From positions 721 to 64,720 of the forward strand of contig JAKASV010000002.1 of the NCBI GenBank assembly GCA_021818945.1: DNA of 64,000 bases. Reading direction: 5' to 3'. Position 1 is the first letter of the stretch, and each line of letters begins with the position of its first letter. Positions 1 through 32,216 of the stretch are shown here, in pieces. The translations under genes were made by a program, and so were the position numbers. The notes below the pieces were generated by a model. It had not been told where the DNA came from and searched no databases. It saw nothing but the letters and a program-made list of their open reading frames with translations. Source of the DNA: a bacterium (GTDB lineage: Bacteria; Babelota; Babeliae; Babelales; Vermiphilaceae).

Positions 1-2
1 TA

Positions 3-3667: not shown

Positions 3668-3678
3668 ATAAGAATAAC

Positions 3679-5688: not shown

Positions 5689-5712
5689 CAAACACAGCAC
5701 TCTCGGAGATGT

Positions 5713-6858: not shown

Positions 6859-6957
6859 CACTACCGTCTATTGACTTTCTCTCTATGTTAGATAATGTAT
6901 AGAGCGTTCATTCGCTATGTTCATGCAATATGTTCATGAGAAAGTAATTTCTAAGGA

Positions 6958-7752: not shown

Positions 7753-7804
7753 AAATCAGTCTGTTGACTTTCTTGACATGTCATATAGTGTATAGAAAGT
7801 TCGT

Positions 7805-10185: not shown

Positions 10186-10186
10186 C

Positions 10187-11590: not shown

Positions 11591-11602
11591 AAGGAACTCA
11601 CA

Positions 11603-12553: not shown

Positions 12554-12557
12554 TCGA

Positions 12558-14087: not shown

Positions 14088-14113
14088 ATCGTACCCTCAA
14101 TGTTGAGCATACA

Positions 14114-16696: not shown

Positions 16697-16925
16697 CTCA
16701 TGAGTAGACCTTATTCATCATTACAAAGTATACCCAATAGCACAAAAAATAAAAAAAGCGTTTTAAACTGAAGAGAACACTATTTAAAATTCATGTTGAA
16801 ATTTTAAATATTACTGGTATTATTATTAATAAAATTATTTAATTTTTATCAAAATGGAGATCTGTCAACGTGACCAAGTTATGGTTTCAATATACTATTC
16901 GTTTTTTTAATTAAGGAAGACCCTT

Positions 16926-19754
16926 ATGGCCATGGTTAAATATATTTCAGCTCTATGCATGTTAGCTTTGCTATCACTAAAACTTGAAGCAATGAGCCTT
17001 CTTAATATTTACAATTCATCTCAAGACACCCCAGTTTACTACAAAATCGGTGATGAACCTTGGGATGTTTTAGATGGAAACAACTCTAGTGCGATGTGGC
17101 AAGTCCCTTGTAACGGATATACTTTTATAAGATTTTCAGCCAATCAGCAAGGATCGCGACCTACTTACTTCGTATTGCCTCCACAACTACCATACCAACA
17201 GGCAGAGCCTGATGATGACTCAGCTGGCAGCAGTACAATGAACTGCGTTATCCAAGTCCACATAAGTGCCATGGCAGGGAAAGTCATAATTGCTCCGCAA
17301 CAAGAAGGACCTGTCGCAGGACAAACAACCTCTGGGCTCTCGTTGGAAAATAATATTACCGCCGCAATCATTGAGCAGTACGTGTCCTTGGCGGAAGCTA
17401 TCGCTTCCATTCAAGTACCTTCAAAAGATCCGGATTCTGTTGCTGCCGACCAAGCGCCGGCACCTTCCACACAAGCAGTCAGCACCGAGCAATCAGAAGA
17501 AAATTCTATTAGAAGCATGTGGAAATCTATACGTGCGTTTCTACCAGCAGACAAAAGCCTTACCTCGACCATTACGAGTTATATGAAGAATATCCTAAAA
17601 AATCATGAAGATTTCATGGATGGAATTGAAGGAGATCTTTCTGCTATCCTTGCAAAATGGCAAAATATCTTATTGGAAAATGCACCTGCAGCAACTGCTT
17701 GGTCAAAACTAACGCCAGTACAAAAGTTATTTTACTTAAAACTATTTGTTTTTATGAATTCAATTAAGAAAACTACAAAAACCCTGGTCATCACGGACGG
17801 TTCTCAGGTAGACACCTCAGCCTCCCTCATGCCCCCACATACACCTCCTGTAACAGATATTAAACTTGATCTTAAAGTTTTCCCTAAAAGCATTTTGTTA
17901 AAAACACAGCCTTCCTGGTTAACTTCTTGGTTGTCAGAAACTGGATACACAAAAAAAGGCAGGATCTTGCACGCATTATGGGACGATGTGGTCGAAATAA
18001 AAAATTTTATTTATGGCGATCCGAAGATTCCATATTTTCCCAATTTACTAGCTACTAATCAATTAGTTATGCCAAAGGATTTGACAGCTCAAGCGTTTTA
18101 TAAAAAATTGATGCATGACAAGGTCATTTTAATAACATTCAGACAGGCAACTATTGGATTGACCATAAACGAGACGTATGCTCACGAGCCCCCCTATTTG
18201 CGACATGAAATGGATCACTTAATTAAGCAAAACGATCATTTAATTGATCATGTCACTCAACTATGTCGTATCAAGTTAATACCTTTAGGGAACTTTGCAG
18301 TTGACATGGAGGCAGAGCGCAAACAAAGACCGGAAGAAGATACTATGACCCGATTTGCTAAATTTTATTTACGTAATCTGCTTTCCTCCACAATAAGCCC
18401 TTTTTTAAAGCTCACGTTAATCGCCTTCTGGGGCGGAGCCGATAATACTACATTTACTTTTCAGTCAGGTAAAACTCAATGGAAATTTTCATCAGAAATA
18501 ATAGATTCAGCAAAAGCTTGCGCTGAACAACATGCCAAATTAAGTTCAATCAAGGGAAAAGCGCCTGCTGACTCCGCTTCCCCAAGCGACGCTCCCGCTG
18601 CATCTCCAGGAGCACTATTACTACCTGCTGACTCAGCTGCTACTTACACAAGCGGTGCCCCAACCACAACTTCAGGAGCACATTTACTACCTACTGATGG
18701 TTCTCCAAAGGCTAGTCAAGCAGATGTGGCAGCTTTGATGCTTGATCAAAAAACTGATTTAGGAACAGAAATAATCGATCAAGTAGTTGATCTTGTAGCA
18801 ACTGGAAAATCTGGATCGTATATTGTTGATGCTACACCTGAATTGATACACAATAATCTAGCTCAAGCCGCCACATTCCTTGCAGCAAAAGCAACAATGA
18901 TAGATGCTGAGGGTGGCAATAGTACATTGGCACAAGAATTGTTGCTGCATGCTCAATATGCTGCCGATTGCTTTAAAACCTTCCATACATGCATGTCAAA
19001 AAAAGCAGGAGAAAAATTAAGTGGTATCGCTAAACATAGTCCATTTTTGCAAATTTTACAAAATTTACGTGATGGTCATGCAACAAAAAAAGAAAAAAAT
19101 GCTGACATTGCTGATACTAAATATAGTGGCATTGTACAAGAATGGTGTGCTTATATAGGGTGTAAATCTGGCGATCTAGCTTTTGACATATTAACTGTCA
19201 TACTGTTACACAAGGCCGGCGCTGGCACCTCGGGAACAACTCCACCTGCTGCAGCAACTGCAACTGGTGGCGCCGGTACTTCGATGGCTGTTGCAACATC
19301 AATTGCCGATGGAGCTATTGTCATTGTAGATAGCGTTAAAGTTGGTATGGCAATGGCATCTGGGCCAAAGGATGCAGACGGGTCTGGCTCAGATACAAAA
19401 ACGCCTGATATAACCGATAAAGTAAGTTCTTCACTATCCGCTGATGATTTAGCCGAAATAAATAAAGTAAAAATTATTTCAAAAGACGATTTACCACATA
19501 TTTTTAGAAATAAGATCGGTCACTTTATTGATAACACGGAAGCTAACCGGCAATTATTGATAACAACTGCCTCAGATTCAAAAAATTTTTTAGGAAAATG
19601 CGAAAAGGGTTCATTTTGGTATGCTAGAGTTTTGACAGATGATACTCAAATTTGGGCTGAAGTTAGAAATGGTAAAATACGAAATGGCGGCCTTAATTTG
19701 ACCCCAAAAAATTTTAATACAAAAACAGGGCTTAAAAAGCATATTAAATCTTAA
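16926..19754 (+). CDS. secreted polymorphic-toxin-like protein: signal peptide, unassigned N-terminal region, conserved pre-toxin segment, variable C-terminal tip A
   Basis: AAGGAAG RBS and signal peptide MAMVKYISALCMLALLSLKLEA. Ala/Pro/Ser/Thr-rich linkers are present. The 3' 600 bp recurs downstream (see repeats). The tip after GPKDAD is unique (..DLPHIFRNKIGHFIDN..WAEVRNGKIRNGG..). Confidence 0.7.
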   Translation: MAMVKYISALCMLALLSLKLEAMSLLNIYNSSQDTPVYYKIGDEPWDVLDGNNSSAMWQVPCNGYTFIRFSANQQGSRPTYFVLPPQLPYQQAEPDDDSAGSSTMNCVIQVHISAMAGKVIIAPQQEGPVAGQTTSGLSLENNITAAIIEQYVSLAEAIASIQVPSKDPDSVAADQAPAPSTQAVSTEQSEENSIRSMWKSIRAFLPADKSLTSTITSYMKNILKNHEDFMDGIEGDLSAILAKWQNILLENAPAATAWSKLTPVQKLFYLKLFVFMNSIKKTTKTLVITDGSQVDTSASLMPPHTPPVTDIKLDLKVFPKSILLKTQPSWLTSWLSETGYTKKGRILHALWDDVVEIKNFIYGDPKIPYFPNLLATNQLVMPKDLTAQAFYKKLMHDKVILITFRQATIGLTINETYAHEPPYLRHEMDHLIKQNDHLIDHVTQLCRIKLIPLGNFAVDMEAERKQRPEEDTMTRFAKFYLRNLLSSTISPFLKLTLIAFWGGADNTTFTFQSGKTQWKFSSEIIDSAKACAEQHAKLSSIKGKAPADSASPSDAPAASPGALLLPADSAATYTSGAPTTTSGAHLLPTDGSPKASQADVAALMLDQKTDLGTEIIDQVVDLVATGKSGSYIVDATPELIHNNLAQAATFLAAKATMIDAEGGNSTLAQELLLHAQYAADCFKTFHTCMSKKAGEKLSGIAKHSPFLQILQNLRDGHATKKEKNADIADTKYSGIVQEWCAYIGCKSGDLAFDILTVILLHKAGAGTSGTTPPAAATATGGAGTSMAVATSIADGAIVIVDSVKVGMAMASGPKDADGSGSDTKTPDITDKVSSSLSADDLAEINKVKIISKDDLPHIFRNKIGHFIDNTEANRQLLITTASDSKNFLGKCEKGSFWYARVLTDDTQIWAEVRNGKIRNGGLNLTPKNFNTKTGLKKHIKS
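19203..19379 (+). repeat. conserved pre-toxin segment, copy a (inside the main gene; long form 18777..19379)
   Basis: It encodes GTSGTTPPAAATATGGAGTSMAVATSIADGAIVIVDSVKVGMAMASGPKDAD. Confidence 0.9.
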
Positions 19755-19768
19755 AAGAGGTCAATTGC

Positions 19769-20164
19769 GTGGAAATATCATATATAGAAGCACTAAAAGC
19801 AATGGAAATATTTTTAGATGAATATTATTCAAGAGAAAAAAAAGATGATATCGGTTTATTGCTCAGCGATATAAGCCTAGATACTTTTATCGAAGAAAAA
19901 ACAGCCGATCCTGCTGCCTGGGAAGATTGGGAAGAAGCTATAGAATCGGTCAAAAAGGACAGTAAAAATAAGACCTTAACAGAAATAGAAAGTTTCGCAG
20001 CAATGATAGCTTTTGTTAAAGCATTTGGCCAACGTATTAACTCGCAAGAAATTAAAGAATTATTGCTTGAAATATTACACGAAGACGTAAACAATGCATC
20101 ATCCTTGTCAAAAGCAAGATTATTTTGGAAACAATGCTTAGAAAGAGTTAAGATTTCTGAATAA
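19769..20164 (+). CDS. candidate cognate immunity protein for tip A
   Basis: A 131-aa acidic cytoplasmic protein that starts 14 nt after the toxin stop. The call is positional. Confidence 0.5.
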   Translation: MEISYIEALKAMEIFLDEYYSREKKDDIGLLLSDISLDTFIEEKTADPAAWEDWEEAIESVKKDSKNKTLTEIESFAAMIAFVKAFGQRINSQEIKELLLEILHEDVNNASSLSKARLFWKQCLERVKISE

Positions 20165-20267
20165 CCCTGAATGCCTGTACTTGTACAAATGCTTTTAGTT
20201 TACGAACTTAATAATATTACGAGAATAGGCCTAGGATCCAATCTGTCGACCCAGCTTTATTTTAACC

Positions 20268-20450
20268 GCCATATTGTTACACAAAGTTGGCGCGGGCACC
20301 TCGGGAACAACTCCACCTGCTGCAGCAACTGCAACTGGTGGCGCCGGTACTTCGATGGCTGTTGCAACATCAATTGCCGATGGAGCTATTGTCATTGTAG
20401 ATAGCGTTAAAGTTGGTATGGCAATGGCATCTGGGCCAAAGGATGCAGAT
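20268..20450 (+). repeat. conserved pre-toxin segment, copy b
   Basis: Near-identical DNA to 19203..19379 and in frame with tip B. Confidence 0.9.
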
Positions 20451-20750
20451 AAGACTGGCGCAAGCGCAGCAAGCTCAGGGCCTGACGGGGATGCTGGTAC
20501 AAGCACTTCAGCAGGTAGCGACAAGGATTCAAAAAAGTCGCATCCTGAAGTTAAAAGCATGAAAGAATTTTTTCAGTTGCCATTTGGCAAGGTGCTTCGA
20601 CAAAATAGCCAGTCAATGAAGAAATACTACCAAGGGCAAAAAATGTACAAAATTACCGCAAAAATTCCTGAGACGTCTCTAAAAATAGGTGATATATTTT
20701 ATTTAGATGCCTCAGAAAAAAACCATCTTGAAGTTTTTGATGCTCAAGGG
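20274..20750 (+). pseudogene. orphan toxin module B, 5' part (interrupted by IS21 at 20750/20751)
   Basis: ..GPKDADKTGASAASSG..KSHPEVKSMKEFFQLPFGKVLRQ..IFYLDASEKNHLEVFDAQG, then IS sequence. The intact paralog at 24646..24921 shows the expected continuation. Confidence 0.8.
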
Positions 20751-20946
20751 TATAGAACGTCAATCATTTTGTCTGGTCGGCGACAATCATTTTGTCTGGT
20801 TTTTAACCCGAATTTATAGTCATAAATATCATTTCATTCCAATGTTTTTGTTGAAAAATTAATAAGAATCCTAAAATAAGCCTCCATTTGAAGGTAGTAA
20901 AAAGTCACTTAACAATGCCTGAGCCTCCTGTAAAGCATGCTTCTAC

Positions 20947-21699
20947 TTATTGGCCCATGCTATTCAACTTTGAGGCTCTTCTATAACTCTGTTCGTTAAT
21001 ATTGATGATTGTTGCATGGTGCACAAGTCTGTCTATTGCAGCAACGGCCATAATATTACTAGGGAAAATAGTGTCCCACTGTTCAAAAGATTGATTAGAT
21101 GTAATTAATAGGCTTTTTGATTCGTACCGATCAGCAATAAGTTCAAATAAGACGCTTGTTTCTGCTTCACTTTTTTTGACATAGCCAATGTCATCAAGAA
21201 TCAGTAATTGGTATCGAGCAAGTTTTGCCAAAAAATCAGATAACTTGCGTTGATTGTAGGCCTCTTGGAGTTTTTGAACCAAAACGGTTGTTTTGACAAA
21301 ATACACTCGCGCACCTTTTTCAATAAGTCGACGACCAATAGCAGCTGCCAAATGAGTTTTACCTACTCCGCTTGGGCCAAAAATAAGAAGATTTTGAGCC
21401 TCTGTAATCCATTGCGTATTTTCGGCAAACGCACTTATTTGTGCTGCATTTATAGAGGATGTTTTGCTGAAATCAAAAGCATCTAGCGCTTTGCCTACGG
21501 GCAGCTTTGCTTCGGCAATATTCCGTTTGATACGGTCCTGTTCTTTGCTCGCCATTTCTTTTTCACACAATGTTGCCAAATATTCAGGATAAGTCCAATG
21601 CTGGGCTTGGGCTTGTTGAGCAACCTCTTCCCAGTATGCGCGCATGACAGGAAGGCGAAGTTGTTTAAGGGAAAAAGGGAGAGTTAGGCTATTAACCAT
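20947..21699 (-). CDS. istB: IS21 helper ATPase IstB
   Basis: Walker A GPSGVGKTH and Walker B LLILDDIGY. The ATG at 21699 overlaps the istA stop by 8 nt. The ORF-track start at 21771 is an upstream extension. Confidence 0.9.
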   Translation of the reverse strand: MVNSLTLPFSLKQLRLPVMRAYWEEVAQQAQAQHWTYPEYLATLCEKEMASKEQDRIKRNIAEAKLPVGKALDAFDFSKTSSINAAQISAFAENTQWITEAQNLLIFGPSGVGKTHLAAAIGRRLIEKGARVYFVKTTVLVQKLQEAYNQRKLSDFLAKLARYQLLILDDIGYVKKSEAETSVLFELIADRYESKSLLITSNQSFEQWDTIFPSNIMAVAAIDRLVHHATIININEQSYRRASKLNSMGQ

Positions 21700-23218
21700 G
21701 TTGTGCTCCTTGCATGCTATTTGGGATAAGATCATTGTAGGCAGCAAGTGGATGCTGTTGAGTTCGAACAATAGGCACTACATTTTTTGCTTGCTTGAAT
21801 TGATATTGTAGATCGTGGAGACTGAGCTTCTTTTCTTGTTGGATGAGACAAATTACAGTACGAGCCAACTCTTCTTCGCAATGCTCTGTTGCTGCAAGAT
21901 GAATCAGTCCGACAATGAATTTGCAAGCATCTTTATCATTCATAATACGATCTACATACTCCCAAATATAGCGATAATCAGCATTAGGAAATAGTTCATC
22001 ACGGAATCGGCAACCTCTAAAGGCGCCTGGTTTTTTCGCAAGCCCTTCAATAAGATGGCTATAGTTTATTTGTCGTGCCCGTCCATTATGCGGAGGTACA
22101 AACTTTCGCTCAAGAGTGATAACATGGACATGACCCAGATAACACTCAAGCTTATCGCTGTATATTCTCACATGAAGTTTTTCTCCAATGAGCCTGCTAT
22201 ATACCGAATAAGTAACACGCCTAACATCGATCACGCTCGAACTGCTTACAACAACCGTAGTCTCGGCATAGTCAGCTGCTTTGGTAGCTGGCAAAGGCAA
22301 CAAATGTTCCCGTTCAGTTTCTAAGTCTTTACAAGCATGTTTATTGTGCTCTTTTAGAACTGCATGAATAAAATCTCTGTATTCATCAAGTGATGAGAAA
22401 TCATTACTGGAACGAATTTTCAAGCTTTGATAAACTCGTTTTTTAAAATGACCATGTGATGATTCAATAGAACCATTTTCGTGCGATTTTCCTGGGTTGA
22501 TACGAGTAGCTTGCATATTAAAGTGCTCTACAAAAGCCTTGTAGCGCTCTGTAAGATCTTCCGAGGCTACCTTGTTCAGGTTTTTGTATGAGGCAGAAAG
22601 ACTATCGGTACGATGTTTTTTTGGGGCGCCTCCAATATATAATAACGCTTCTTGAAGTCCTTGAGCAAAAGCTTCATAAGGTTCTCCAGACCCTCTGAAT
22701 ACTTGCACATAATTAAAACCGCTATATGGCAAGCGAAAATGATAAAAAATATGCTCAAATACCTCTCCCTTAATAGTAACCTGAATTTCATTGGGATGAG
22801 TAAAATCGGATATCCCTAGATCGCCAGGTTCATGTTTTTGTCTAAACATAACTTCTTTTTCTGGTCCAAATAAAGCCCTCCATCTTTTTATTCTACGTTG
22901 TAATGTGCGCAGGGTTGAATCGGCAAATTTTCCAGGGAATTTTTTTTGTAGTTCTTCAAGTATAAAGGTCGCCTCAAAAACTCCATCTTTAAGCCATGCA
23001 ATTATGTTTTGTTCCCATACATCTGCAAAAACATCATCCTTTGTTTTCCAGTTATGAGGGCTACCTTTTTGGTGTACATTGTTATCAATTCTGCTGCCTG
23101 TTCTCTCAGAGAATCCTGCTTTTGCAGCCGCTATTTTTTGGGGGCAGTCGTTTTGTCTATTATTCATGTAAAGAGCCTTTTGTTGGTCGGTCACCATTTC
23201 TTGATATGTCCTTTCCAT
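21692..23218 (-). CDS. istA: IS21 transposase IstA
   Basis: 508 aa with an N-terminal HTH (KIAAAKAGFSERTGSRI) and an rve-type DDE core. The gene order and overlap are typical of IS21. Confidence 0.9.
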   Translation of the reverse strand: MERTYQEMVTDQQKALYMNNRQNDCPQKIAAAKAGFSERTGSRIDNNVHQKGSPHNWKTKDDVFADVWEQNIIAWLKDGVFEATFILEELQKKFPGKFADSTLRTLQRRIKRWRALFGPEKEVMFRQKHEPGDLGISDFTHPNEIQVTIKGEVFEHIFYHFRLPYSGFNYVQVFRGSGEPYEAFAQGLQEALLYIGGAPKKHRTDSLSASYKNLNKVASEDLTERYKAFVEHFNMQATRINPGKSHENGSIESSHGHFKKRVYQSLKIRSSNDFSSLDEYRDFIHAVLKEHNKHACKDLETEREHLLPLPATKAADYAETTVVVSSSSVIDVRRVTYSVYSRLIGEKLHVRIYSDKLECYLGHVHVITLERKFVPPHNGRARQINYSHLIEGLAKKPGAFRGCRFRDELFPNADYRYIWEYVDRIMNDKDACKFIVGLIHLAATEHCEEELARTVICLIQQEKKLSLHDLQYQFKQAKNVVPIVRTQQHPLAAYNDLIPNSMQGAQHG

Positions 23219-23316
23219 TTTAAGGGGTACGTATCAAGTTTATCTGTAAAATTAACTTTAATCTGGACCAGACAAAATGATTGTCGTCAACCAGACAGAA
23301 TGATTGTCGCACAATA

Positions 23317-23412
23317 CAAGGGGATATAAAAACAGTATTAAATCTTGATGGGACTGTCAATATCGCTAAAAGAGCGAAAGCTGTGAAACAAAATAGAAAA
23401 ATTAAGCTCTAG
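23317..23412 (+). pseudogene. orphan toxin module B, 3' part
   Basis: After the TSD the frame continues ..DIKTVLNLDGTVNIAKRAKAVKQNRKIKL*, matching NIKTVLNLDGTVNVKKSNAAKGRKIKI* of 24646..24921. Confidence 0.8.
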
Positions 23413-23420
23413 AGGTTCGG

Positions 23421-24152
23421 ATGATTAATGAATTTTCACAAATTGTTGAAATAATCGAAGATCTAGATAAACAAAATATGATTTTAAAAGCAGCGGATAT
23501 AAGAGAACAGAAAGAAAATATTATCGATTTTGCGCGTGAAAAAAAGAACCTTATTTTACTTATGACAAAACTACAAACTTTGGCTCCTCATGTCATAGAA
23601 GTTGTTACGCCGAACAAAGCGACAGATCATGTCGGTCCTACAACCATCATTCTATTAGACATACGAGGAGAGCTAATGAATTACAAGTGGCAATTTTTTA
23701 CTATGGCAGCATTTATCAAACCTATAGTCAAATTTTATCGACGAAAAGCTCGCACCGTAGCTTGTCTTAATGAAAAATTTACATCTAACCCAATATTGTT
23801 ACATACAACAATAAGCCCCTTCCATAGCGAGGTCGACGAACTTAAACATTTAATAATAGTCATAGACAATCTTAATAATGATTTAGGAGAAAAAAGGATT
23901 TTGACTAATCAAGACTTACATGACGGATACAGAACTGTCCAAGAACTTTCAGCTATGAGCATTGATATACAAGAAATTCTTGATAAACTTCGGGGCATAG
24001 ATCCTATTGACTTATGTGCCATCGATCACTTATTACGGACTCTATTTGGAAAAATTTCTAAAAGCTGCGAATATATTTCAATAATAATTGATCAGGTAAT
24101 GAGAAAGATGATAAGCCATTACCCTGATTGGAACGATGATTTTGGTCAATAA
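23421..24152 (+). CDS. candidate immunity protein for tip B (243 aa, helical, no signal peptide)
   Basis: It starts 9 nt after the tip-B stop. The call is positional. Confidence 0.5.
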   Translation: MINEFSQIVEIIEDLDKQNMILKAADIREQKENIIDFAREKKNLILLMTKLQTLAPHVIEVVTPNKATDHVGPTTIILLDIRGELMNYKWQFFTMAAFIKPIVKFYRRKARTVACLNEKFTSNPILLHTTISPFHSEVDELKHLIIVIDNLNNDLGEKRILTNQDLHDGYRTVQELSAMSIDIQEILDKLRGIDPIDLCAIDHLLRTLFGKISKSCEYISIIIDQVMRKMISHYPDWNDDFGQ

Positions 24153-24247
24153 TGAATAGTCAAATTTTTAATAAACTCAATTCAATTGCCAATCACATAT
24201 GAGCACTCTAAAATCTACCCCTATTCGATATAGCCCGCTAAAGCCTA

Positions 24248-24534
24248 AAAAAATGCTGACATTACTAAAACAAAATATAGTGGCATTGTACAAGAATGGT
24301 GTGCTTACTTAGGATGCAAAGTTGGCGATCTAGCTTTTGACATAGCAACTGTCATATTGTTACACAAAGTTGGCGCGGGCACCTCGGGAACAACTCCACC
24401 TGCTGCAGCAACTGCAACTGGTGGCGCCGGTACTTCGATGGCTGTTGCAACATCAATTGCCGATGGAGCTATGGTCATTGTAGATAGCGTTAAAGTTGGT
24501 ATAGTAATGGCATCTGGGCCAAAGGATTGCAGAT
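24248..24534 (+). repeat. conserved pre-toxin segment, copy c (longer 5' extent, carries the +T lesion)
   Basis: Homology to the main gene runs from ..KNADI..YSGIVQEWCAY.. onward. It reads GPKDCR* because of an extra T at about 24528. Confidence 0.9.
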
Positions 24535-24645
24535 AAGACTGGCGCAAGCGCAGCAGGCTCAGGTACCGATGGGGATGCCGGTACAAGCACTTCAGCAGGA
24601 AAAGATAACAAAGATTCAAAAAAGTCGCATCCTGAAGTTAAAAGC

Positions 24646-24921
24646 ATGAAAGAATTTTTTCAGTTGCCATTTGGCAAGGTGCTTCGACAAAATAGCCAGT
24701 CAATGAAGAAATACTACCAAGGACAAAAAATGTACAAAATTACCGCAAAAATTCCTGAGACGTCTCTAAAAATAGGTGATATATTTTATTTAGATGCGCT
24801 AGAAAAGAACCATCTCGAAGTTTTTGATGCTCACGGAAATATTAAAACAGTTTTAAATCTTGATGGCACTGTAAATGTAAAAAAAAGCAATGCTGCAAAA
24901 GGCAGAAAAATTAAGATCTAG
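24646..24921 (+). CDS. orphan toxin tip B' (colicin-E3-like candidate), out of frame with its upstream conserved segment
   Basis: MKEFFQLPFGKVLRQ..IGDIFYLDALEKNHLEVFDAHGNIKTVLNLDGTVNVKK..RKIKI. No obvious SD sequence. Confidence 0.6.
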   Translation: MKEFFQLPFGKVLRQNSQSMKKYYQGQKMYKITAKIPETSLKIGDIFYLDALEKNHLEVFDAHGNIKTVLNLDGTVNVKKSNAAKGRKIKI

Positions 24922-25058
24922 CGCCTGTTATGCAAGTAATCGCTTACTCTTGTTAGAATAAATGTAAGAGCTAAATATGATTTTTTGTATAACGACATAT
25001 CATAAATTTAATATATTATTAAATAGATAGAATGTAAAAAAATATCAGGAATGTACAC

Positions 25059-25601
25059 ATGCATATTTCATCTTTTGAGCAATCAAATAAAAAAAAAATA
25101 CGTGGGCTCAAAAAAAAGTGTCGCGCTATGGTAGAAGCTCTCATTGCACAGACTTCTGAGTTTCCTATAGATTATAACTCAGAAGAATATTGGCACTATC
25201 ATTTGCCTGTAGCACAATCATTTATTGATTCAAAACACACTCCGCAATCAGTAAGACGATTATGCATACAGACAATGATAGATAGAACACAATTTTTATC
25301 TCAACATAAACCAAAAAACGCAAAAAGCTGCCGTGTTCTATGTCTAGTTTGTCTTCCAGATTTATGGTCCTCTGTTATAACAATTTTTTCTAGTCAAAAT
25401 TACTTTATTCATTTTTTTGATCGCAACAACCCATGGCAACGATGGACTCCTTTAATTCACAAAGACATAGCTAAAGAATACAATCTAATTATTCCAAGCA
25501 ATTTTCAAGTCAAAAGCTACAAACATGAATGCTTTGATGATGATAATCCCAGTATTGTAACTTATGTTGGAGAAATTTGGGCTATAGGCGAACTTGAATA
25601 A
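25059..25601 (+). CDS. hypothetical protein, candidate immunity for tip B'
   Basis: 180 aa with no signal peptide, 137 nt downstream of tip B'. It is unrelated to the 243-aa ORF that follows tip B. Confidence 0.4.
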   Translation: MHISSFEQSNKKKIRGLKKKCRAMVEALIAQTSEFPIDYNSEEYWHYHLPVAQSFIDSKHTPQSVRRLCIQTMIDRTQFLSQHKPKNAKSCRVLCLVCLPDLWSSVITIFSSQNYFIHFFDRNNPWQRWTPLIHKDIAKEYNLIIPSNFQVKSYKHECFDDDNPSIVTYVGEIWAIGELE

Positions 25602-25692
25602 TCAATAATTGCGATAATACAAGTTAGGGTTCTAAAAACCGGCTTATTGCGATAATGCAATCGTAAGCGTTCCTGCATAACCGCTGAGCGCT

Positions 25693-26763
25693 ATGATGAT
25701 AATAAAAGCGCCAAAACTCTATTTTTTACTTGATTCAGCAATTGATTTGGGATCGCGAATCAGTGATCAAGTAGTTGATCTTGTAGCAACTGGAAAATCT
25801 GGATCGTATATTGTTGATGCTACACCTGAATTGATACACAATAATCTAGCTCAAGCCGCCACATTCCTTGCAGCAAAAGCAACAATGATAGATGCTGAGG
25901 GTGGCAATAGTACATTGGCACAAGAATTGTTGCTGCATGCTCAATATGCTGCCGATTGCTTTAAAACCTTCCATACATGCATGTCAAAAAAAGCAGAAGA
26001 AAAATTAAGTGGTATCGCTAAACATAGTCCATTTTTGCAAATTTTACAAAATTTACGTGATGGTCATACAACAAAAAAAGAAAAAAATGCTGACATTACT
26101 GATACTAAATATAGTGGCATTGTACAAGAATGGTGTGCTTATATAGGGTGTAAATCTGGCGATCTAGCTTTTGACATATTAACTGTCATACTGTTACACA
26201 AGGCCGGCACTGGCACCTCGGGAACAACTCCACCTGCTGCAGCAACTGCAACTGGTGGCGCCGGTACTTCGATGGCTGTTGCAACATTAATTGCCGATGG
26301 AGCTATTGTCATTGTAGATAGCGTTAAAGTTGGTATGGCAATGGCATCTGGGCCAAAGGATGCAGATAAGACTGGCGCAAGCGCAGCAAGCTCAGGGCCT
26401 GACGGGGATGCCGGTACAAGCACTTCAGCAGGTAGCGACAAGGATTCAAGCAAGAGTCATCCTGTAGCAAATAATATGAAAGAGGTTTTTGAAAAAACAC
26501 CTTTCGGAAAAAAATTAAAATCTGTGGTACAATCAACTGGTAAATTTAGCACCAAAAATGAACTCATTTATAAAGTAACAGCAGACTTTGGTCATTCAGA
26601 TATCAAAAAAGGCGACTATATCCATTTTGATAAGCTCCACAAATGTGAATTAGAGGTTTATGATAAAACTGGACAATCGAAGGCCGTAGTATGGTTGGAT
26701 GGTATAGTTAACCAACAAAAAACAGATAAGGTATTAGACGGTAAAAGAACTATCAAAGTCTAA
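25693..26763 (+). CDS. orphan toxin module C1 (long conserved 5' part plus tip C, in frame)
   Basis: Positions 25765..26367 align without indels to 18777..19379 of the main gene, and I count five aa differences by eye. A divergent tip then follows: MKEVFEKTPFGKKLK..DYIHFDKLHKCELEVYDKTG..RTIKV. Confidence 0.75.
   Translation: MMIIKAPKLYFLLDSAIDLGSRISDQVVDLVATGKSGSYIVDATPELIHNNLAQAATFLAAKATMIDAEGGNSTLAQELLLHAQYAADCFKTFHTCMSKKAEEKLSGIAKHSPFLQILQNLRDGHTTKKEKNADITDTKYSGIVQEWCAYIGCKSGDLAFDILTVILLHKAGTGTSGTTPPAAATATGGAGTSMAVATLIADGAIVIVDSVKVGMAMASGPKDADKTGASAASSGPDGDAGTSTSAGSDKDSSKSHPVANNMKEVFEKTPFGKKLKSVVQSTGKFSTKNELIYKVTADFGHSDIKKGDYIHFDKLHKCELEVYDKTGQSKAVVWLDGIVNQQKTDKVLDGKRTIKV
25765..26367 (+). 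repeat. conserved pre-toxin segment, copy d (603-bp long form)
   Basis: See 25693..26763. The offset to the main gene is a constant 6988 nt across the whole block. Confidence 0.9.
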
Positions 26764-26772
26764 AACAAGGCA

Positions 26773-27441
26773 ATGAACGTGGATGCAATAAGCAGGGTAA
26801 TTAAATTAGTACAATATCTTGATAAAGAATCGGGCCTGATTCTCGACAAACCATTACTTGCAGCCCTTGAAATTATGCCTCAATGTATCAATAATTACGA
26901 AACTAATATGAGTAAAGCATTAGATGAATTGCAAATAGTTGACAAAGAAGATTTTGCTAGAATAGATGAACTTTTCTTTGATATAAAAATTGAATTGTCT
27001 CTTTATGCATCAGATATGCAAAAATTAAAATATTTCTGGCGAAAATTATTTAATGCTAGGTTTAATAACCAGTCTAAATATAAAAAAAGAGAGACTGGAC
27101 AAACCGATGAATTTGAGAGACACGATTTTATTGACATTATTTTTAAACGAATCACTGCTACAATAGATACTTTTAACGTTGTGGATTCTGAACATATTTT
27201 TCGTAAAAAAGATTTACGGACTTTGCAGGAGAATTCTGATGAAATATGTCAAGCTCTTAATAATTTGGATAATTTAATAAATGAACGTTTCATATCTAAA
27301 AATTGTTGTGAAGATATTGAGGATCTCATAGATGCAATGATCATGATAAGTTACGATATAAATAACGTAACCTATGCAATTGATTTTTTGCTAAACATTC
27401 TGACAAAGATTGTAGATTTTTATAATAGAAAAGCCTACTAA
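26773..27441 (+). CDS. candidate immunity protein ImmC1 (222 aa)
   Basis: It starts 10 nt after tip C1. It belongs to a four-member paralog set (26773, 28018, 30033, 31275). Confidence 0.55.
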   Translation: MNVDAISRVIKLVQYLDKESGLILDKPLLAALEIMPQCINNYETNMSKALDELQIVDKEDFARIDELFFDIKIELSLYASDMQKLKYFWRKLFNARFNNQSKYKKRETGQTDEFERHDFIDIIFKRITATIDTFNVVDSEHIFRKKDLRTLQENSDEICQALNNLDNLINERFISKNCCEDIEDLIDAMIMISYDINNVTYAIDFLLNILTKIVDFYNRKAY

Positions 27442-27465
27442 ATATAAAGCATTATTCCTGGCAAT

Positions 27466-27613
27466 CGGGAACAACTCCACCTGCTGCAGCAACTGCAACT
27501 GGTGGCGCCGGTACTGCGATGGCTGTTGCAACCTCTATTGCCGATGGAGCTATGGTCATTGTAGATAGCGTTAAAGTTGGTATGGCAATGGCATCTGGGC
27601 CAAAGGATTGCAG
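27466..27613 (+). repeat. conserved pre-toxin segment, copy e (+T lesion)
   Basis: Same core; reads ..GPKDCR* with an extra T at about 27609. Confidence 0.9.
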
Positions 27614-27723
27614 ATAAGACTGACACAAGCTGAGCAAGCTCAGGGCCTGACGGGGATGCGGGTACAAGCGCTTCGGCAGGCAGCGACAAGAATTCAAGCA
27701 AGAGTCATCCTGTAGCAAATAAT

Positions 27724-28008
27724 ATGAAAGAGGTTTTTGAAAAAACACCTTTCGGAAAAAAATTAAAATCTGTGGTACAATCAACTGGTAAATTTAGCCT
27801 CAAAAATGAACTCATTTATAAAGTAACAGCAGACTTTGGTCATTCAGATATCAAAAAAGGCGACTATATCCATTTTGATAAGCTCCACAAATGTGAATTA
27901 GAGGTTTATGATAAAACTGGACAATCGAAGTCCGTAGTATGGTTGGATGGTATAGTTAACCAACAAAAAACAGATAAGCTAGACCCTAAAAGAACTATCA
28001 AAGTCTAA
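27724..28008 (+). CDS. orphan toxin tip C2
   Basis: 94 aa and near-identical to tip C1 except for the C-terminal tail (..KTDKLDPKRTIKV). Confidence 0.6.
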   Translation: MKEVFEKTPFGKKLKSVVQSTGKFSLKNELIYKVTADFGHSDIKKGDYIHFDKLHKCELEVYDKTGQSKSVVWLDGIVNQQKTDKLDPKRTIKV

Positions 28009-28017
28009 AACAAGGCA

Positions 28018-28686
28018 ATGAACATGGCTGCAATAAGCAGGATAATTAAATTAGCACAATATCTAGATAAAGAAGCAGGGCAGGTTCTCGATAAATCATT
28101 GCTTGCAGCCCTTGAAATTATGCCTCAATGTATCAATAATTACGAAACTAATATGAGTAAAGCGTTAGATGAATTGCAAATAGTTGATAAAAAAGATTTT
28201 GCTAGAATAGTTGAGTTGTTCTTTAATATAAAGATTGAGCTATCTCTTTATGAATTAGATATGAAAAAATTGAGTTATTCATGGCTGAGATTATTAAAAG
28301 ATGATTTTACTGAAAATCGTATTAGCAGGCAAAAGGAGATTGTAGGAGTCAATAATTGTGGCACAGATAATCACATAGATATTCTTTTTCAACGTATTGG
28401 CGATGCAATAATCGTATTTAACATTGTTAATTCAGAACATATTTTTCATAAAAAAGACTTAAAAGCTTTGCAGGATAATTCTGATGAAATGTGTCAAGCC
28501 CTTAATAATTTGAATAATTTTATTAATGAATATTTCATATCAAAAAATGATTGTGAATACCTTGACGACCCGATAAGTCCAATGCGTTGGATAAGTTACG
28601 ATATAAATAACGTAACCTATGCAATTGATTTTTTGCTAAACATTCTGACAAAGATTGTAGATTTTTATAATAGAAAAGCCTGCTAA
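28018..28686 (+). CDS. candidate immunity protein ImmC2
   Basis: Paralog of ImmC1 with conserved ends and a divergent middle. Confidence 0.55.
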   Translation: MNMAAISRIIKLAQYLDKEAGQVLDKSLLAALEIMPQCINNYETNMSKALDELQIVDKKDFARIVELFFNIKIELSLYELDMKKLSYSWLRLLKDDFTENRISRQKEIVGVNNCGTDNHIDILFQRIGDAIIVFNIVNSEHIFHKKDLKALQDNSDEMCQALNNLNNFINEYFISKNDCEYLDDPISPMRWISYDINNVTYAIDFLLNILTKIVDFYNRKAC

Positions 28687-28697
28687 TTCAGTCGCTG

Positions 28698-28810
28698 ATG
28701 GCGCCGGTACTTCGATGGCTGTTGCAACATCAATTGCCGATGGAGCTATTGTCATTGTAGATAGCGTTAAAGTTGGTATGGCAATGGCATCTGGGCCAAA
28801 GGATGCAGAC
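28698..28810 (+). repeat. conserved pre-toxin segment, copy f (short, in frame)
   Basis: GAGTSMAVATSIADGAIVIVDSVKVGMAMASGPKDAD. Confidence 0.9.
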
Positions 28811-29200
28811 GGGGCTGTTACGAGCGCAGCAGGCTCAGGTTCTGCTGGAGATGCCGGTACAAGTTCGGACCAAGTTCACGAGCCACATTTAGTAAAATGG
28901 ACAAATCACGGCTTTAAACATTTTCCACCTAAAAGTGCAGCTTGGAAAGACATAGTTTCATCGACAAAGGGAGGCCCTGCAAAATATCATCCAACAGTAG
29001 CTATAGAAAAAATCGAGAGATTAGTCTGGGAAAAAGGTAAACTGTGCACTAATGGAAAACCATGGAAAGTAATGAAATTTACAAATATCATAGGTGCAAA
29101 AAATGGTTTAGAAACCACTTGCATTAGAGTTGAATGCAGCGGCAAGACGATACATGGTCATCCGATTACTTTTGACGAATATTTAAAACTCATAAATTAA
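28715..29200 (+). CDS. orphan toxin module D (unassigned His-rich tip)
   Basis: After GPKDAD comes GAVTSAAGSGSAGDAGTSSDQVHEPHLVKWTNHGFKHFPPK..IRVECSGKTIHGHPITFDEY. The ORF-track Met is the conserved internal Met of the repeat. Confidence 0.6.
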   Translation: MAVATSIADGAIVIVDSVKVGMAMASGPKDADGAVTSAAGSGSAGDAGTSSDQVHEPHLVKWTNHGFKHFPPKSAAWKDIVSSTKGGPAKYHPTVAIEKIERLVWEKGKLCTNGKPWKVMKFTNIIGAKNGLETTCIRVECSGKTIHGHPITFDEYLKLIN

Positions 29201-29207
29201 GGAAAAC

Positions 29208-29522
29208 ATGAATTTAAAGTTATTTTTGTCTAATTTATTTGATGGGCAAATTTTATATGATGAATTAGGCTTACTTGAAGAACTAGTTATTCCCGGCGAT
29301 CAATTACACTTGTTAAAGGAAGATTTATTACAAGTTGAAAGTCTTGACGGTGAATACCTATTAGATGTCGGATGGTACCCAGAGTTTAACGCCACGGGTC
29401 AATTCATAATCATGATCATAAAAAAATGTAATTGGGAAAATCCGATTTTAATACGAAAAACTTCCGATATTCAATCATTAAAACAAATATTAATAACATG
29501 CAAATCAATATCCAATTTTTAA
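29208..29522 (+). CDS. candidate immunity protein for tip D (104 aa)
   Basis: It starts 8 nt after tip D and is a small acidic cytoplasmic protein (..LLDVGWYPEFNATGQFIIMII..). Confidence 0.5.
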   Translation: MNLKLFLSNLFDGQILYDELGLLEELVIPGDQLHLLKEDLLQVESLDGEYLLDVGWYPEFNATGQFIIMIIKKCNWENPILIRKTSDIQSLKQILITCKSISNF

Positions 29523-29557
29523 GGGTTAAAAAAAAGAAGCTAGAAACATCTATCATC

Positions 29558-29630
29558 GATGGAGCTATTGTCGTTGTAGATAGTGTTAAAGTTGGTAGGG
29601 CAATGGCGGCTGGGACAAAGGATTGCAGAT
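29558..29630 (+). repeat. conserved pre-toxin segment, copy g (shortest and most diverged, +T lesion)
   Basis: DGAIVVVDSVKVGRAMAAGTKDCR*. Confidence 0.8.
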
Positions 29631-30023
29631 AAGACTGGCGCAAGCGCAGCAGGCTCAGGTACCGACGGGGATGCCGGTACAAGCGCTTCAGCAGGCAGCG
29701 ACAAGGATTCAAGCAAGGGTCATCCTGTAGCAAATAATATGAAAGAGGTTTTTGAAAAAACACCTTTCGGAAAAAAATTAAAATCTGTGGTACAATCAAC
29801 TGGTAAATTTAGCCTCAAAAATGAACTCATTTATAAAGTAACAGCAGACTTTGGTCATTCAGATATCAAAAAAGGCGACTATATCCATTTTGATAAGCTC
29901 CACAAATGTGAATTAGAGGTTTATGATAAAACTGGAAAATCGAAGTCCGTAGTATGGTTGGATGGTATAGTAAACCAACAAAAAAAGTCAAAAATTGGTA
30001 AAACAAGAACTATCAAAGTCTAA
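29583..30023 (+). CDS. orphan toxin tip C3 (toxin domain from ATG 29739)
   Basis: ..ADKTGASAAGSGTDGDAGTSASAGSDKDSSKGHPVANNMKEVFEK..ELEVYDKTGKSKSVVWLDG..KTRTIKV. Confidence 0.6.
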   Translation: MLKLVGQWRLGQRIADKTGASAAGSGTDGDAGTSASAGSDKDSSKGHPVANNMKEVFEKTPFGKKLKSVVQSTGKFSLKNELIYKVTADFGHSDIKKGDYIHFDKLHKCELEVYDKTGKSKSVVWLDGIVNQQKKSKIGKTRTIKV

Positions 30024-30032
30024 AACAAGGCA

Positions 30033-30701
30033 ATGAACATGGCTGTAATAAGCAGGATAATTAAATTAGCACAATATCTAGATAAAGAAGCAGGGCAGAT
30101 TCTCGATAAATCATTGCTTGCAGCCCTTGAAATTATGCCTCAATGTATCAATAATTACGAAACTAATACGATCAAAGCATTAGATGCATTGCAAATAGTT
30201 GATAAAAAAGATTTTTCTAGAATAGTTGAGTTGTTCTTTAATATAAAGATTGAGCTATCTCTTTATGAATTAGATATGAAAAAATTGAGTTATTCATGGT
30301 TGAGATTATTAAAAGATGATTTTACTGAAAATCGTATTAGCAGGCAAAAGGAGATTGTAGGAGTCAATAATTGTGGCACAGATAATCACATAGATATTCT
30401 TTTTCAACGTATTGGCGATGCAATAATCGTATTTAACATTGTTAATTCAGAACATATTTTTCATAAAAAAGACTTAAAAGCTTTGCAGGAGAATTCTGAT
30501 GAAATGTGTCAAGCCCTTAATAATTTGAATAATTTTATTAATGAATATTTCATATCAAAAAATGGTTGTGAATATCTTGACGACCCGATAAGGCCAATGT
30601 TTTGGATAAGTTACGATATCGACAATGTAGCCTATGCAATTGACTTTTTGCTAAACATTCTGACAAAGATTGTAGATTATTACAGTCGAGAAGCCTACTA
30701 A
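30033..30701 (+). CDS. candidate immunity protein ImmC3
   Basis: Nearly identical to ImmC2. Confidence 0.55.
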   Translation: MNMAVISRIIKLAQYLDKEAGQILDKSLLAALEIMPQCINNYETNTIKALDALQIVDKKDFSRIVELFFNIKIELSLYELDMKKLSYSWLRLLKDDFTENRISRQKEIVGVNNCGTDNHIDILFQRIGDAIIVFNIVNSEHIFHKKDLKALQENSDEMCQALNNLNNFINEYFISKNGCEYLDDPIRPMFWISYDIDNVAYAIDFLLNILTKIVDYYSREAY

Positions 30702-30726
30702 ATATAAAGCATTATTCCTGGCAATT

Positions 30727-30865
30727 GGAAACAACTCCGCTACTGTAGCTGATGGCGCCGGTACTTCGATGGCTGTTGCAACATCAATTGCCGATGGAGC
30801 TATGGTCATTGTAGATAGCGTTAAAGTTGGTATGGCAATGGCATCTGGGCCAAAGGATTGCAGAT
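30727..30865 (+). repeat. conserved pre-toxin segment, copy h (+T lesion)
   Basis: Same core with an extra T at about 30859. Confidence 0.9.
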
Positions 30866-30970
30866 AAGACTGGCGCAAGCGCAGCAGGCTCAGGTACCGA
30901 CGGGGATGCCGGTACAAGCGCTTCAGCAGGCAGCGACAAGGATTCAAGCAAGGGTCATCCTGTAGCAAAT

Positions 30971-31265
30971 AATATGAAAGAGGTTTTTGAAAAAACACCT
31001 TTCGGAAAAAAATTAAAATCTGTGGTACAATCAACTGGTAAATTCAGCCCAAAAGGGGAACTAATTTATAATTTATAAAGTAACAGCCGACTTTGGGCAT
31101 GCAAAGATTAAAAAAGATGACTATATTCATTTTGATAAATATCACAAATGGGAACTAGAGGTTTATGATAATACTGGAAAATCGAAGACAGTGGTATGGT
31201 TAGATGGCATAGTTAACCAATAAAAAACAGCTCTGAAAGCAGGTAAAAGAACTATCAAAGTCTAA
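30971..31265 (+). pseudogene. degraded toxin tip C4
   Basis: A 7-nt tandem duplication atttata/atttata at 31064-31077 shifts the frame. A CAA>TAA nonsense lies at 31221-31223 relative to C1-C3. Confidence 0.8.
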
Positions 31266-31274
31266 AACAAGGCA

Positions 31275-31967
31275 ATGAACATGGCTGCAATAAACAAGCT
31301 AATTAAATTAGCACAATATCTAGATAAAGAAGCAGGGCAGATTCTCGATAAATCATTGTTTGCATCCCTTGAAATTATGCCCCAATGTATCAATAATTAC
31401 GAAACTAATATTAGTAAAGCGTTAGATGAATTGCAAACAGTTGATAGAAAAGATTTTGCAAGAATAGATGAGTTGTTCTTTGATGTAAAGATTGAATTGT
31501 CTCTTTATGGATTAGATATACAAAAATTGAGTTATTCGTGGCTTAGATTATTAAAAAACAAATACTTTATAGAAAATCCTATTAACAGACAGATGAAAAC
31601 TGTAGGAAGTCATACGTGTGACACAGAAAATCACATAGATATTCTTTTTAAACGTATTTGCAATACTATAAATACATTTGACATTGTAGATCCTGAACAT
31701 GTTTTTAATAAAAGATACTTAAAAACACTAAAGGAGGATGTTAAAGAATTGTCGAAAAATTCTGATGAAATGTGTCAAGCTCTTAATAATTTGGATAATT
31801 TAATAAATGAACGTTTCATATCTAAAAATTGTTGTGAAGATATTGAGGAACTCATAGATGCAATGCTCATGATAAGTTACGATATACATAATGCAACCTA
31901 TGCAATTGACTTTTTGCTCAATATTTTGACAAATATTGTAGATTTTTATAGTAGAAAAGCCTACTAA
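31275..31967 (+). CDS. candidate immunity protein ImmC4 (230 aa, mosaic)
   Basis: The N-terminus and middle resemble ImmC2/3. The C-terminal third (NLDNLINERFISKNCCEDIEELIDAM..) resembles ImmC1. Confidence 0.55.
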   Translation: MNMAAINKLIKLAQYLDKEAGQILDKSLFASLEIMPQCINNYETNISKALDELQTVDRKDFARIDELFFDVKIELSLYGLDIQKLSYSWLRLLKNKYFIENPINRQMKTVGSHTCDTENHIDILFKRICNTINTFDIVDPEHVFNKRYLKTLKEDVKELSKNSDEMCQALNNLDNLINERFISKNCCEDIEELIDAMLMISYDIHNATYAIDFLLNILTNIVDFYSRKAY

Positions 31968-31979
31968 TTCAGTCGCTGA

Positions 31980-32082
31980 TGGCGCCAGCACTTCGATGGC
32001 TGTTGCAACCTCTATTGCCGATGGAGCTATTGTCATTGTAGATAGCATTAAAGTTGGTATGGCAATGGCATCTGGACCAAAG
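31980..32082 (+). repeat. conserved pre-toxin segment, copy i (terminal remnant with no tip)
   Basis: GASTSMAVATSIADGAIVIVDSIKVGMAMASGPK, then unrelated sequence and a stop. Confidence 0.85.
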
Positions 32083-32216
32083 GTCCTCGTTCCACAGATT
32101 AAAAGACAGCTACCATAGCCCCCCTCCTGGCTTTGGCACTCATAATGTGATTAAAAACCAACCAGATCAAAAAAATGGTCAAATAACGGTATAATTAAAT
32201 TAAATTAATAATTTTA

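Follow-up and report, generated by a model that had tools for sequence, protein, structure and literature searches.

The window analysed here, the whole 64,000-nucleotide (nt) stretch of contig JAKASV010000002.1 introduced above, contains a gene for a 942-amino-acid (aa) protein with a predicted signal peptide, followed by an array of partial copies of the 3' end of that gene. Judged by its sequence, this is very probably a locus for polymorphic toxins and their immunity proteins in a host-dependent bacterium akin to the Dependentiae. Dependentiae (TM6) are widespread protist parasites, mostly uncultured and with small genomes. The C-terminal domain of the protein, referred to here as the tip, varies among relatives (12 proteins share its pre-toxin [PT] domain, and homologs were found for tips A, C, and D). 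A partner open reading frame (ORF), immA, stands directly 3' of the tip, and its homologs occupy the same position behind tip-A-like modules in three other lineages; standalone tip/immunity cassettes with 5' homology to the full-length gene lie downstream. The locus is a lineage-specific variant in which a known weapon design is mounted on new carrier domains.

Layout of the main gene and the cassette array

The main protein consists, in order, of a signal peptide, an N-terminal module (N-module), a helical segment, a unique middle, a linker, the PT domain, a further linker, and tip A. An earlier note on this DNA had described a 942-aa signal-peptide gene with an acidic ORF 14 nt behind it, and the coordinates of both were confirmed. 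The same organism is represented by the metagenome-assembled genome (MAG) GCA_027321735.1, which is 99.98% identical over 12.4 kb, and was present in several other samples too, among them ERZ27237336, ERZ27237313, and DRR872537. The features of the main gene are as follows, with supporting evidence in parentheses (HMM, hidden Markov model; AF2, AlphaFold2; pI, isoelectric point).

16796-16823 (+): promoter-like site TTGAAA-16-TATTAT with TG, about 100 nt 5' of the main gene (consensus match alone)
16926-19754 (+): main toxin gene, 942 aa (ORF, HMM, and AF2 evidence)
16926-16991 (+): predicted signal peptide, residues 1-22, with cleavage between ...LEA and MS (hydropathy, alignment, and model)
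16992-17420 (+): N-module, residues 23-165, beta-sandwich then helix (10 relatives; AF2 model)
17493-17786 (+): helical "H" segment, residues 190-287, with the end ...W..LTPVQKLFYLK (HMM)
17802-18545 (+): middle region, residues 293-540, free of relatives except for the same gene in MAG GCA_027321735.1
18732-19370 (+): PT domain, residues 603-815 (12 relatives; HMM; hydropathy)
19295-19371 (+): main-gene copy of a 77-nt core, encoding ...TSIADGAIVIVDSVKVGMAMASGPK (repeat search)
19371-19754 (+): linker and tip A, pI 9.6 (homologs)
19769-20164 (+): immA, 131 aa, GTG start, pI 4.6, 14 nt behind the tip A stop

A repeat search of the window detected the 77-nt core in nine in-register copies that were 83-100% identical and started at positions 19295, 20366, 24449, 26283, 27530, 28726, 29545, 30780, and 32007. 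An HMM of the PT domain run on the window matched the same nine places and no others. Such a nine-copy array is far beyond chance. The copies correspond to the main gene, seven cassettes (c1 to c7), and a terminal copy without a tip (c8), and both searches thus confirmed the seven units and tip-less closing copy that had been reported before. The cassettes and their partner ORFs are listed below; "+1 T" denotes a one-nucleotide insertion described in a later section.

20235-20750 (+): c1, PT fragment, linker, and 5' part of tip B1, in frame, cut by IS21
20750-23330 (-): IS21-family insertion element, boundaries approximate (translations; Pfam matches to the same genes in L001, contig DAHVIV010000002.1 of MAG GCA_027321735.1)
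23328-23412 (+): 3' remainder of tip B1, ...IKTVLNLDGTVNIAKRAKAVKQNRKIKL and stop
23421-24152 (+): c1 partner, 243 aa, pI 5.8, 8 nt behind the tip B1 stop
24249-24921 (+): c2, PT fragment (24249-24536), +1 T, tip B2 out of frame (ORF 24646-24921)
25059-25601 (+): c2 DUF3916 ORF, 180 aa, pI 8.5, 137 nt behind tip B2 (PF13079, 6e-40)
25693-26763 (+): c3, complete PT domain, linker, and tip C, all in frame
26773-27441 (+): c3 partner, 222 aa, pI 4.8, 9 nt behind the tip
27429-28008 (+): c4, short PT fragment, +1 T, tip C (ORF 27724-28008)
28018-28686 (+): c4 partner, 222 aa
28661-29200 (+): c5, conserved PT part in frame, tip D
29208-29522 (+): c5 partner immD, 104 aa, pI 4.5, 7 nt behind tip D
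29545-30023 (+): c6, degenerate PT core, +1 T, tip C
30033-30701 (+): c6 partner, 222 aa
30676-31230 (+): c7, PT fragment, +1 T, truncated or frameshifted tip C remnant
31275-31967 (+): c7 partner, 230 aa, mosaic of the c3 and c4/c6 types
31942-32118 (+): c8, terminal PT core copy without tip (repeats, HMM)

The earlier statement that most units lack a start codon requires amendment for c3 and c5, which have in-frame ATG codons (ORFs of 356 and 161 aa, respectively). The IS21 genes in c1 lie on the minus strand (istB, 20947-21771, 274 aa; istA, 21692-23218, 508 aa). The insertion is clean, with the reading frame of tip B1 picking up again behind the element, and is also present in L001.

Four tip families with homologs in polymorphic toxins

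Instead of a distinct variable tip in every unit, as had been claimed, we found only four families: tip A in the main gene, B in c1 and c2, C in c3, c4, c6, and c7, and D in c5. The tips are basic (pI 9.4-9.9), and the copies of tip C are 90-97% identical among themselves. Tip A, with the conserved residues PHIF..GH...NR...WAEVRNG..RNGG, is 49% identical to an unannotated orphan in a filamentous-hemagglutinin (CdiA-type) array of Paraburkholderia phymatum pBPHY02 (1e-9) and 49% identical to the C terminus of a Scytonema plasmid protein (5e-14); a homolog is also carried by P0012, one of the PT-domain relatives. Tip C resembles the extreme C terminus of a Metabacillus LXG-domain protein (41% identity) and a standalone ORF (37%) from an array on a Duffyella plasmid, in which an HNH polymorphic toxin and a VENN pre-toxin gene are also found. 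For tip D, the C-terminal toxin of a Salmonella bongori PAAR-Rhs protein (PDB 8qjc) was matched at 8e-32, and both the H..KH and the HGHP residues are conserved; the tip is also 44% identical to the C terminus of a Klebsiella plasmid protein annotated as an S-type pyocin. The S. bongori toxin could be produced only alongside its immunity protein, and an RNase fold has been predicted for it (10.1101/2024.02.26.582050). It is therefore well supported by homology that the tips, through the relatives of A, C, and D in polymorphic toxins, are toxin domains, and the occurrence of these relatives in Rhs-PAAR, pyocin-annotated, LXG, and CdiA-type/VENN contexts bears out the proposal of a polymorphic toxin with displaced cassettes.

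Two candidate assignments were rejected. Tip A gave no match in Pfam, NCBIfam, the PDB, or a word-index protein search, and its matches to ricin-B "QxW"-like profiles were weak (E of at least 0.036) and judged to be due to chance. By eye, a D..H..LEVYD..G pattern in tips B and C had suggested a colicin E3-type rRNase. The hhalign probability for this relationship was 0.2%, neither tip had a match in Pfam (which includes the colicin E3-type "Cytotoxic" family) or in PDB phmmer and profile searches, and the D..H..E positions differ between tips B and C and so are not conserved.

Partner ORFs as putative immunity genes

The partner ORFs are intact in all seven orphan cassettes, are 104 to 243 aa long, and lack an N-terminal hydrophobic stretch. 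Their pIs range from 4.5 to 5.8 and they stand 7 to 14 nt behind their tips, with the DUF3916 ORF of c2 outside both ranges. The earlier description of coupled, signal-less ORFs of 104 to 243 aa thus held for size and for the lack of a hydrophobic N terminus; tight coupling did not extend to the DUF3916 ORF because of its distance from the tip and its basic pI. A role of this ORF as an immunity protein is uncertain, and the literature on DUF3916 held nothing useful about such a role.

The ORF behind the main gene is the most informative partner. immA is a tandem duplication of a domain of about 65 aa that is present in single copy in its Paraburkholderia (71 aa) and Scytonema (81 aa) counterparts, and it is homologous to the ORF directly 3' of tip-A-like modules in P. 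phymatum (41% identity, 3e-14), Scytonema (5e-5), and the metagenomic array L020 described below (2.5e-12). This shared arrangement, the pairing of basic tips with acidic partners, and the short gaps between them support a toxin-immunity relationship. The tip homologs in Rhs, LXG, CdiA-type, and pyocin-annotated contexts, together with the homologs of immA, are the hallmark of toxin-immunity modules moving from one delivery system to another. For immD, the similarity to a 99-aa ORF behind the Klebsiella homolog of tip D was weak (2e-5 in a single pairwise comparison and 2.5e-4 in a small batch BLAST).

The 222-aa partners are paralogs that are 65-93% identical, with ratios of nonsynonymous to synonymous substitution rates (dN/dS) of 0.35-0.49, and the 243-aa partner of c1 is a distant relative of this family (25% identity). 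Comparison of the 222- and 230-aa partners showed that they are mosaics, with conserved ends flanking a divergent middle; they are 65-72% identical, except for c4 and c6, which are 93% identical. Set against the 90-97% identity of the adjoining tips, this divergence is unexpected if immunity is strictly cognate.

Carrier domains and their relatives

The predicted signal peptide has K at position 5, then a hydrophobic core, and an AxA-like cleavage site, and relatives read ...SLGA before M at this point. A Kyte-Doolittle hydropathy peak falls at residues 1-19 of the main protein, and the AF2 model places a helix of low predicted local distance difference test score (pLDDT) at residues 6-15. The N-module was modelled with a mean pLDDT of 77.8, with 10-residue blocks averaging 81-95 across most of residues 21-90 and 111-160. 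Because a Foldseek search of the PDB with this model returned only weak, generic beta-sandwich matches (HGSNAT luminal domain, CBM20/25; TMq of 0.36 or less), the N-module could not be assigned to a family. An HMM of the H domain, built from the relatives P0005, P0006, P0011, and P0015, matched residues 190-287 alone (E of 1.6e-18), which represent a partial copy, and the idea that the middle region is a second H domain was thereby ruled out.

Two pairs of Cys residues are conserved in the PT domain (A[ED]C..TF..C and QEWCA..GCK), and a hydrophobic segment of A, V, G, and I forms its end; a hydropathy peak lies at residues 783-801. An AF2 model of the PT domain with tip A had a mean pLDDT of 47.8, and its sole confident part was a helical hairpin at residues 636-706. 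Scans of residues 1-815 against Pfam and NCBIfam gave no significant match. These scans uphold the earlier view that the protein has no recognisable delivery domain. The carrier domains, an N-module modelled as a beta-sandwich and a cysteine-bearing PT domain, are previously undescribed. A promoter/terminator scan yielded nothing informative apart from one plausible promoter 5' of the main gene, and promoter-like sites in the main-gene region were not in excess over shuffled sequence.

When 1.84 billion representative proteins were searched exhaustively with HMMER, only 22 relatives of the carrier were identified, in two classes. Ten match residues ~2-190, which comprise the signal peptide and the N-module; in most of the ten, Pro/Ala-rich linkers follow, together with one or two helical domains that end W..L.P.QKLFYLK, and one, P0019, has a C-terminal RING-H2 finger (PF13639, 3.6e-12). 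The remaining 12 match the PT domain (residues ~600-815, motif EPKYxGIVQEWCAxAGCKxGD), with a different tip in each. A profile search of a 5.8-billion-protein set returned P0001 and P0022 only, a scan of genome contigs with the main protein gave no match, and a scan of metagenomes with the PT motif found two short contigs.

Among the N-module relatives, P0005 is a 755-aa paralog with two H domains and without a toxin tip, encoded at 6001-8268 of L027 (ENA ERZ27237336 contig k141_146524), from a sample that also holds the organism of the window. Its gene stands two genes from murJ and next but one to an ABC ATPase gene, and the gene for P0022, from metagenome contig L019, directly adjoins the same murJ/ABC pair. 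Proteins of the P0005/P0022 type may represent a conserved core member of the N-module family.

Other metagenomic arrays combine a PT segment, a tip, and a small ORF (L017, L018, L020, and L021), and three of them (L017, L018, and L021) are shorter. L020 (ENA ERZ25039481 contig_28815, 1-8000) is a second array from another genome and is more degraded. It opens with a DDE transposase that cuts a tip and contains tip fragments, two tandem Imm32-like ORFs, a Cys_rich_CPCC ORF, a tip-A-like module with its immA-like ORF, and, at its end, a truncated pre-toxin fragment; no full-length carrier gene was found within the 13 kb retrieved.

Recombination among cassettes and decay of stored tips

Four cassettes, c2, c4, c6, and c7, carry an identical +1 T right behind the conserved core, at which AAAGGATGC has become AAAGGATTGC (GGATGC to GGATTGC; sites 24520-24533, 27601-27614, 29616-29629, and 30851-30864, respectively). 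The insertion closes the conserved frame as ...GPKDCR and a stop and leaves the tip as a separate, out-of-frame ORF that starts MKE[VF]F, the same residue at which the standalone Duffyella homolog of tip C starts. The T is present in c2 of an independent short-read MAG and is therefore not a sequencing error. Since it is found with two tip types (B and C), and since each of two linker haplotypes defined by multiple single-nucleotide polymorphisms occurs with both tip B and tip C, with all four combinations present in the window, the cassettes have exchanged sequence in the very segment through which a tip would be replaced.

An in-frame swap would now be possible from c3 (tip C) and c5 (tip D) only. 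The best candidate donor is c3, whose PT copy of about 640 nt is 94-97% identical to the main gene.

Comparison of related genomes for other tips on the main gene, as the earlier note had suggested, produced a sole case, which we reject. In L001 the main gene is joined directly to tip B. The same MAG contains L023 (DAHVIV010000006.1), a contig of 1212 nt that is 100% identical to window positions 19224-20435 and holds the tip A/immA unit. The length of L023 equals a 1071-nt unit plus a 141-nt k-mer overlap, and it is therefore a de Bruijn loop contig; because this loop contig exists in the same MAG, the join of the main gene to c1 in L001 is an assembly artefact. P0001, the 940-aa protein deposited from L001, is a chimera and probably has no real counterpart.

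Comparison with known systems

The closest design is that of Neisseria MafB/MafI. As in MafB, a signal peptide is the sole recognisable export signal, a lineage-restricted constant N terminus precedes a C-terminal toxin that varies, the immunity gene follows directly 3', and orphan C-terminal (CT)/immunity cassettes downstream have 5' homology to the main gene (concept, PMC3482391). Unlike MafB, residues 1-815 have no DUF1020/MAFB-N match in Pfam or NCBIfam, no mafA-like lipoprotein gene lies upstream, where glyA (serine hydroxymethyltransferase) is found on the opposite strand instead, the phylum and lifestyle differ, and the carrier has its own PT domain with conserved Cys pairs.

In orphan CdiA-CT/CdiI arrays, too, shortened 3' ends of toxin genes stand beside their cognate immunity genes and each of them opens with a piece of the pre-toxin region, and homologs of tip A and immA reside inside the filamentous-hemagglutinin orphan array of P. 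phymatum. However, Pfam searches found no two-partner secretion domain, filamentous-hemagglutinin repeats, or VENN motif in the present protein, its junction is the ...VDSVKVGMAMASGPK segment and not VENN, and the 64-kb window has no cdiB-like gene. Orphan Rhs toxin/immunity pairs keep a fragment of the core 3' end, as here; YD repeats, PAAR, and the DPxGL cleavage motif are absent, no type VI secretion system (T6SS) genes lie in the window, and tip D alone is held in common. Similarly, there is no match to the LXG or WXG100 domains of type VII secretion system (T7SS) substrates, and tip C is all that the locus has in common with an LXG protein. Because the defining domains of each of these families were tested for and not found, the locus falls outside the MafB, CdiA, Rhs, and LXG families.

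A further likeness is to APD1/APD2 of the amoeba-associated bacterium Amoebophilus asiaticus and to Microscilla-N, in which a lineage-specific constant domain behind a signal peptide is combined with varied C termini, including, for the APD1/APD2 type, ubiquitin-system domains (PMC3482391). The N-module described here occurs on a toxin, on proteins whose helical domains are repeated, and on one protein with a RING finger. In contrast to APD1/APD2, it has no lipobox and is unrelated to any Pfam family, and the variable C termini are stored serially with immunity genes, whereas APD effectors are described as deployed in parallel. Since Sec-only polymorphic toxins with lineage-specific N-terminal domains (MAFB-N, Microscilla-N, and APD1/2) have already been described (PMC3482391), the design principle is not new; of the earlier suggestion of an undescribed Sec-dependent toxin family, what stands is that the carrier itself is unmatched. 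The general design was described earlier for Neisseria, Microscilla, and amoeba symbionts (Zhang et al. 2012; PMC3482391). A full-text literature search found no paper tying Dependentiae to polymorphic toxins.

Organism and genomic surroundings

RpsA encoded in the window is 92% identical to that of one MAG and 54-63% identical to those of further MAGs, including Candidatus Dependentiae/Babeliales. The organism thus looks like a member of the group formed with Candidatus Dependentiae, in agreement with the host-associated bacterium that had been suspected. The window has a G+C content of about 37% and also holds housekeeping genes. No type V, VI, or VII secretion genes were found in its 64 kb, as reported before for the vicinity of the locus.

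Several neighbouring genes are of interest in their own right. A gene at 719-1195 (-) encodes a type IV pilin-like protein with a methylation motif at its N terminus and bears on the proposed export by type II secretion system (T2SS)/type IV pilus machinery discussed below. A Fic/DOC-domain protein and two ankyrin-repeat proteins (44895-45650, 46767-47540, and 59231-60283) are typical of the effector sets of intracellular bacteria. Just upstream of the toxin locus, positions 5713-15448 contain at least six glycosyltransferase genes and a polysaccharide flippase-like gene, and a related MAG has a Glyco_transf_6 match in the same glycosyltransferase region. Directly 3' of the array, a 488-aa ORF (32390-33856) encodes a hydrophobic N terminus (MNKILLMSLLTTLCIGC...) and a long, charged, coiled-coil-like body, with no family match. 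Five further large ORFs (597, 500, 404, 702, and 791 aa; 52094-59047, -, and 35096-37471, -) had no Pfam match at the thresholds applied, and the 791-aa ORF had none in NCBIfam either.

Proposed mechanism and alternative explanations

We propose that the main protein would exit the cytoplasm via Sec, as suggested by its N-terminal sequence and by the two conserved Cys pairs of the PT domain. It would then cross the outer membrane, or be retained on it, via T2SS/type IV pilus-like machinery core to the phylum; T2SS components have been reported as core to TM6/Dependentiae (PMC4776705). The carrier may deliver the tip to a neighbouring, closely related bacterium, in the cytoplasm of which the tip would act, most likely as an RNase. 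The immunity genes, and the origin of the tip families in interbacterial systems, point to related bacteria as the targets. Acidic, signal-less immunity proteins would shield both the producing cell and its kin. Through homologous recombination in the PT segment, the carrier could acquire a stored tip together with the immunity gene of that tip, and the intact orphan immunity genes probably also guard against rivals bearing those tips.

Some observations weigh against this interpretation. The N-module is also found on the RING-finger protein P0019, which makes the eukaryotic host a possible destination. Among the seven stored tips, five cannot be used at present (IS21 splits one, and four are frameshifted, one of these also being truncated), and therefore the array may be decaying instead of being actively used. 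We saw no case of a tip exchanged into the main gene, and for tips A, B, and C neither a fold nor an activity could be assigned, the AF2 model of tip A having a pLDDT below 50.

The destination of the tips is the point at which other explanations come closest. The same toxin-immunity architecture could be aimed at the eukaryotic host or its organelles, with the N-module as a surface-anchoring or host-delivery module common to host-directed effectors and with immunity genes that merely guard the producer before export. A RING-H2 finger is sensible only in a eukaryotic cytosol, the organism groups with Dependentiae and has ankyrin-repeat and Fic proteins in the window, and Amoebophilus APD1/APD2 provide a precedent for a constant N terminus with variable, host-directed C termini (PMC3482391). 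However, the tip families are those used by interbacterial Rhs-T6SS, LXG-T7SS, and CdiA-type arrays and by a pyocin-annotated protein, serial orphan cassettes that keep immunity genes even for unexpressed tips are typical of discrimination between kin and rivals, and Zhang et al. take the toxin/immunity pairs of amoeba symbionts as arms for interbacterial conflict. We therefore consider exclusively host-directed tips unlikely. A broader idea, which we regard as rather unlikely, is that the N-module with its signal peptide may be a Dependentiae-specific export, anchoring, or host-delivery tag for a set of effectors (RNase-type toxins with immunity genes, a RING E3-like protein, and proteins with repeated helical domains), the tips being deployed inside the protist against co-infecting rivals or against host targets such as organelle ribosomes. 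If true, obligate intracellular bacteria without type III, IV, or VI secretion systems would possess a new route by which polymorphic toxins are delivered.

The state of the cassettes raises the question of whether the array is a decaying relic, in which the main gene may work, the cassettes no longer supply tips, and selection keeps the orphan immunity genes against the toxins of competitors. The damage to c1 and to the four +1 T-shifted tips, set beside seven of seven intact immunity-like ORFs and their dN/dS values, is what such a relic would show, and frameshifts likewise abound in the related arrays L018 and L020. Against this, c3 retains its complete, in-frame PT domain, c5 is in frame, and the linker/tip haplotypes record recombination between cassettes. 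A relic in this sense overlaps with the polymorphic toxin explanation and does not replace it, and as a separate account we find it very unlikely. Silent partial cassettes with the conserved 5' segment of one expressed gene also resemble loci for surface-antigen variation of the vls, pilS, or msp2 type, in which cassettes diversify an exposed C terminus against the host response without any role as toxins. The homology of the tips to known or predicted toxin domains (Rhs, LXG, filamentous-hemagglutinin array, and pyocin annotated) and the conserved, nonsecreted partner ORF behind each tip, a feature absent from antigenic-variation cassettes, leave that explanation with hardly any credibility.

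Implications

Taken as a polymorphic toxin-immunity system, the locus suggests that reduced, host-dependent bacteria still invest in a weapon of interbacterial type together with spare tips and antidotes. The retention of such a weapon would therefore indicate real competition between strains within one host. The N-module and the PT domain provide two new search handles for secreted toxins and effectors across the phylum, and the link between the N-module and a RING finger offers a lead on protein export towards hosts.

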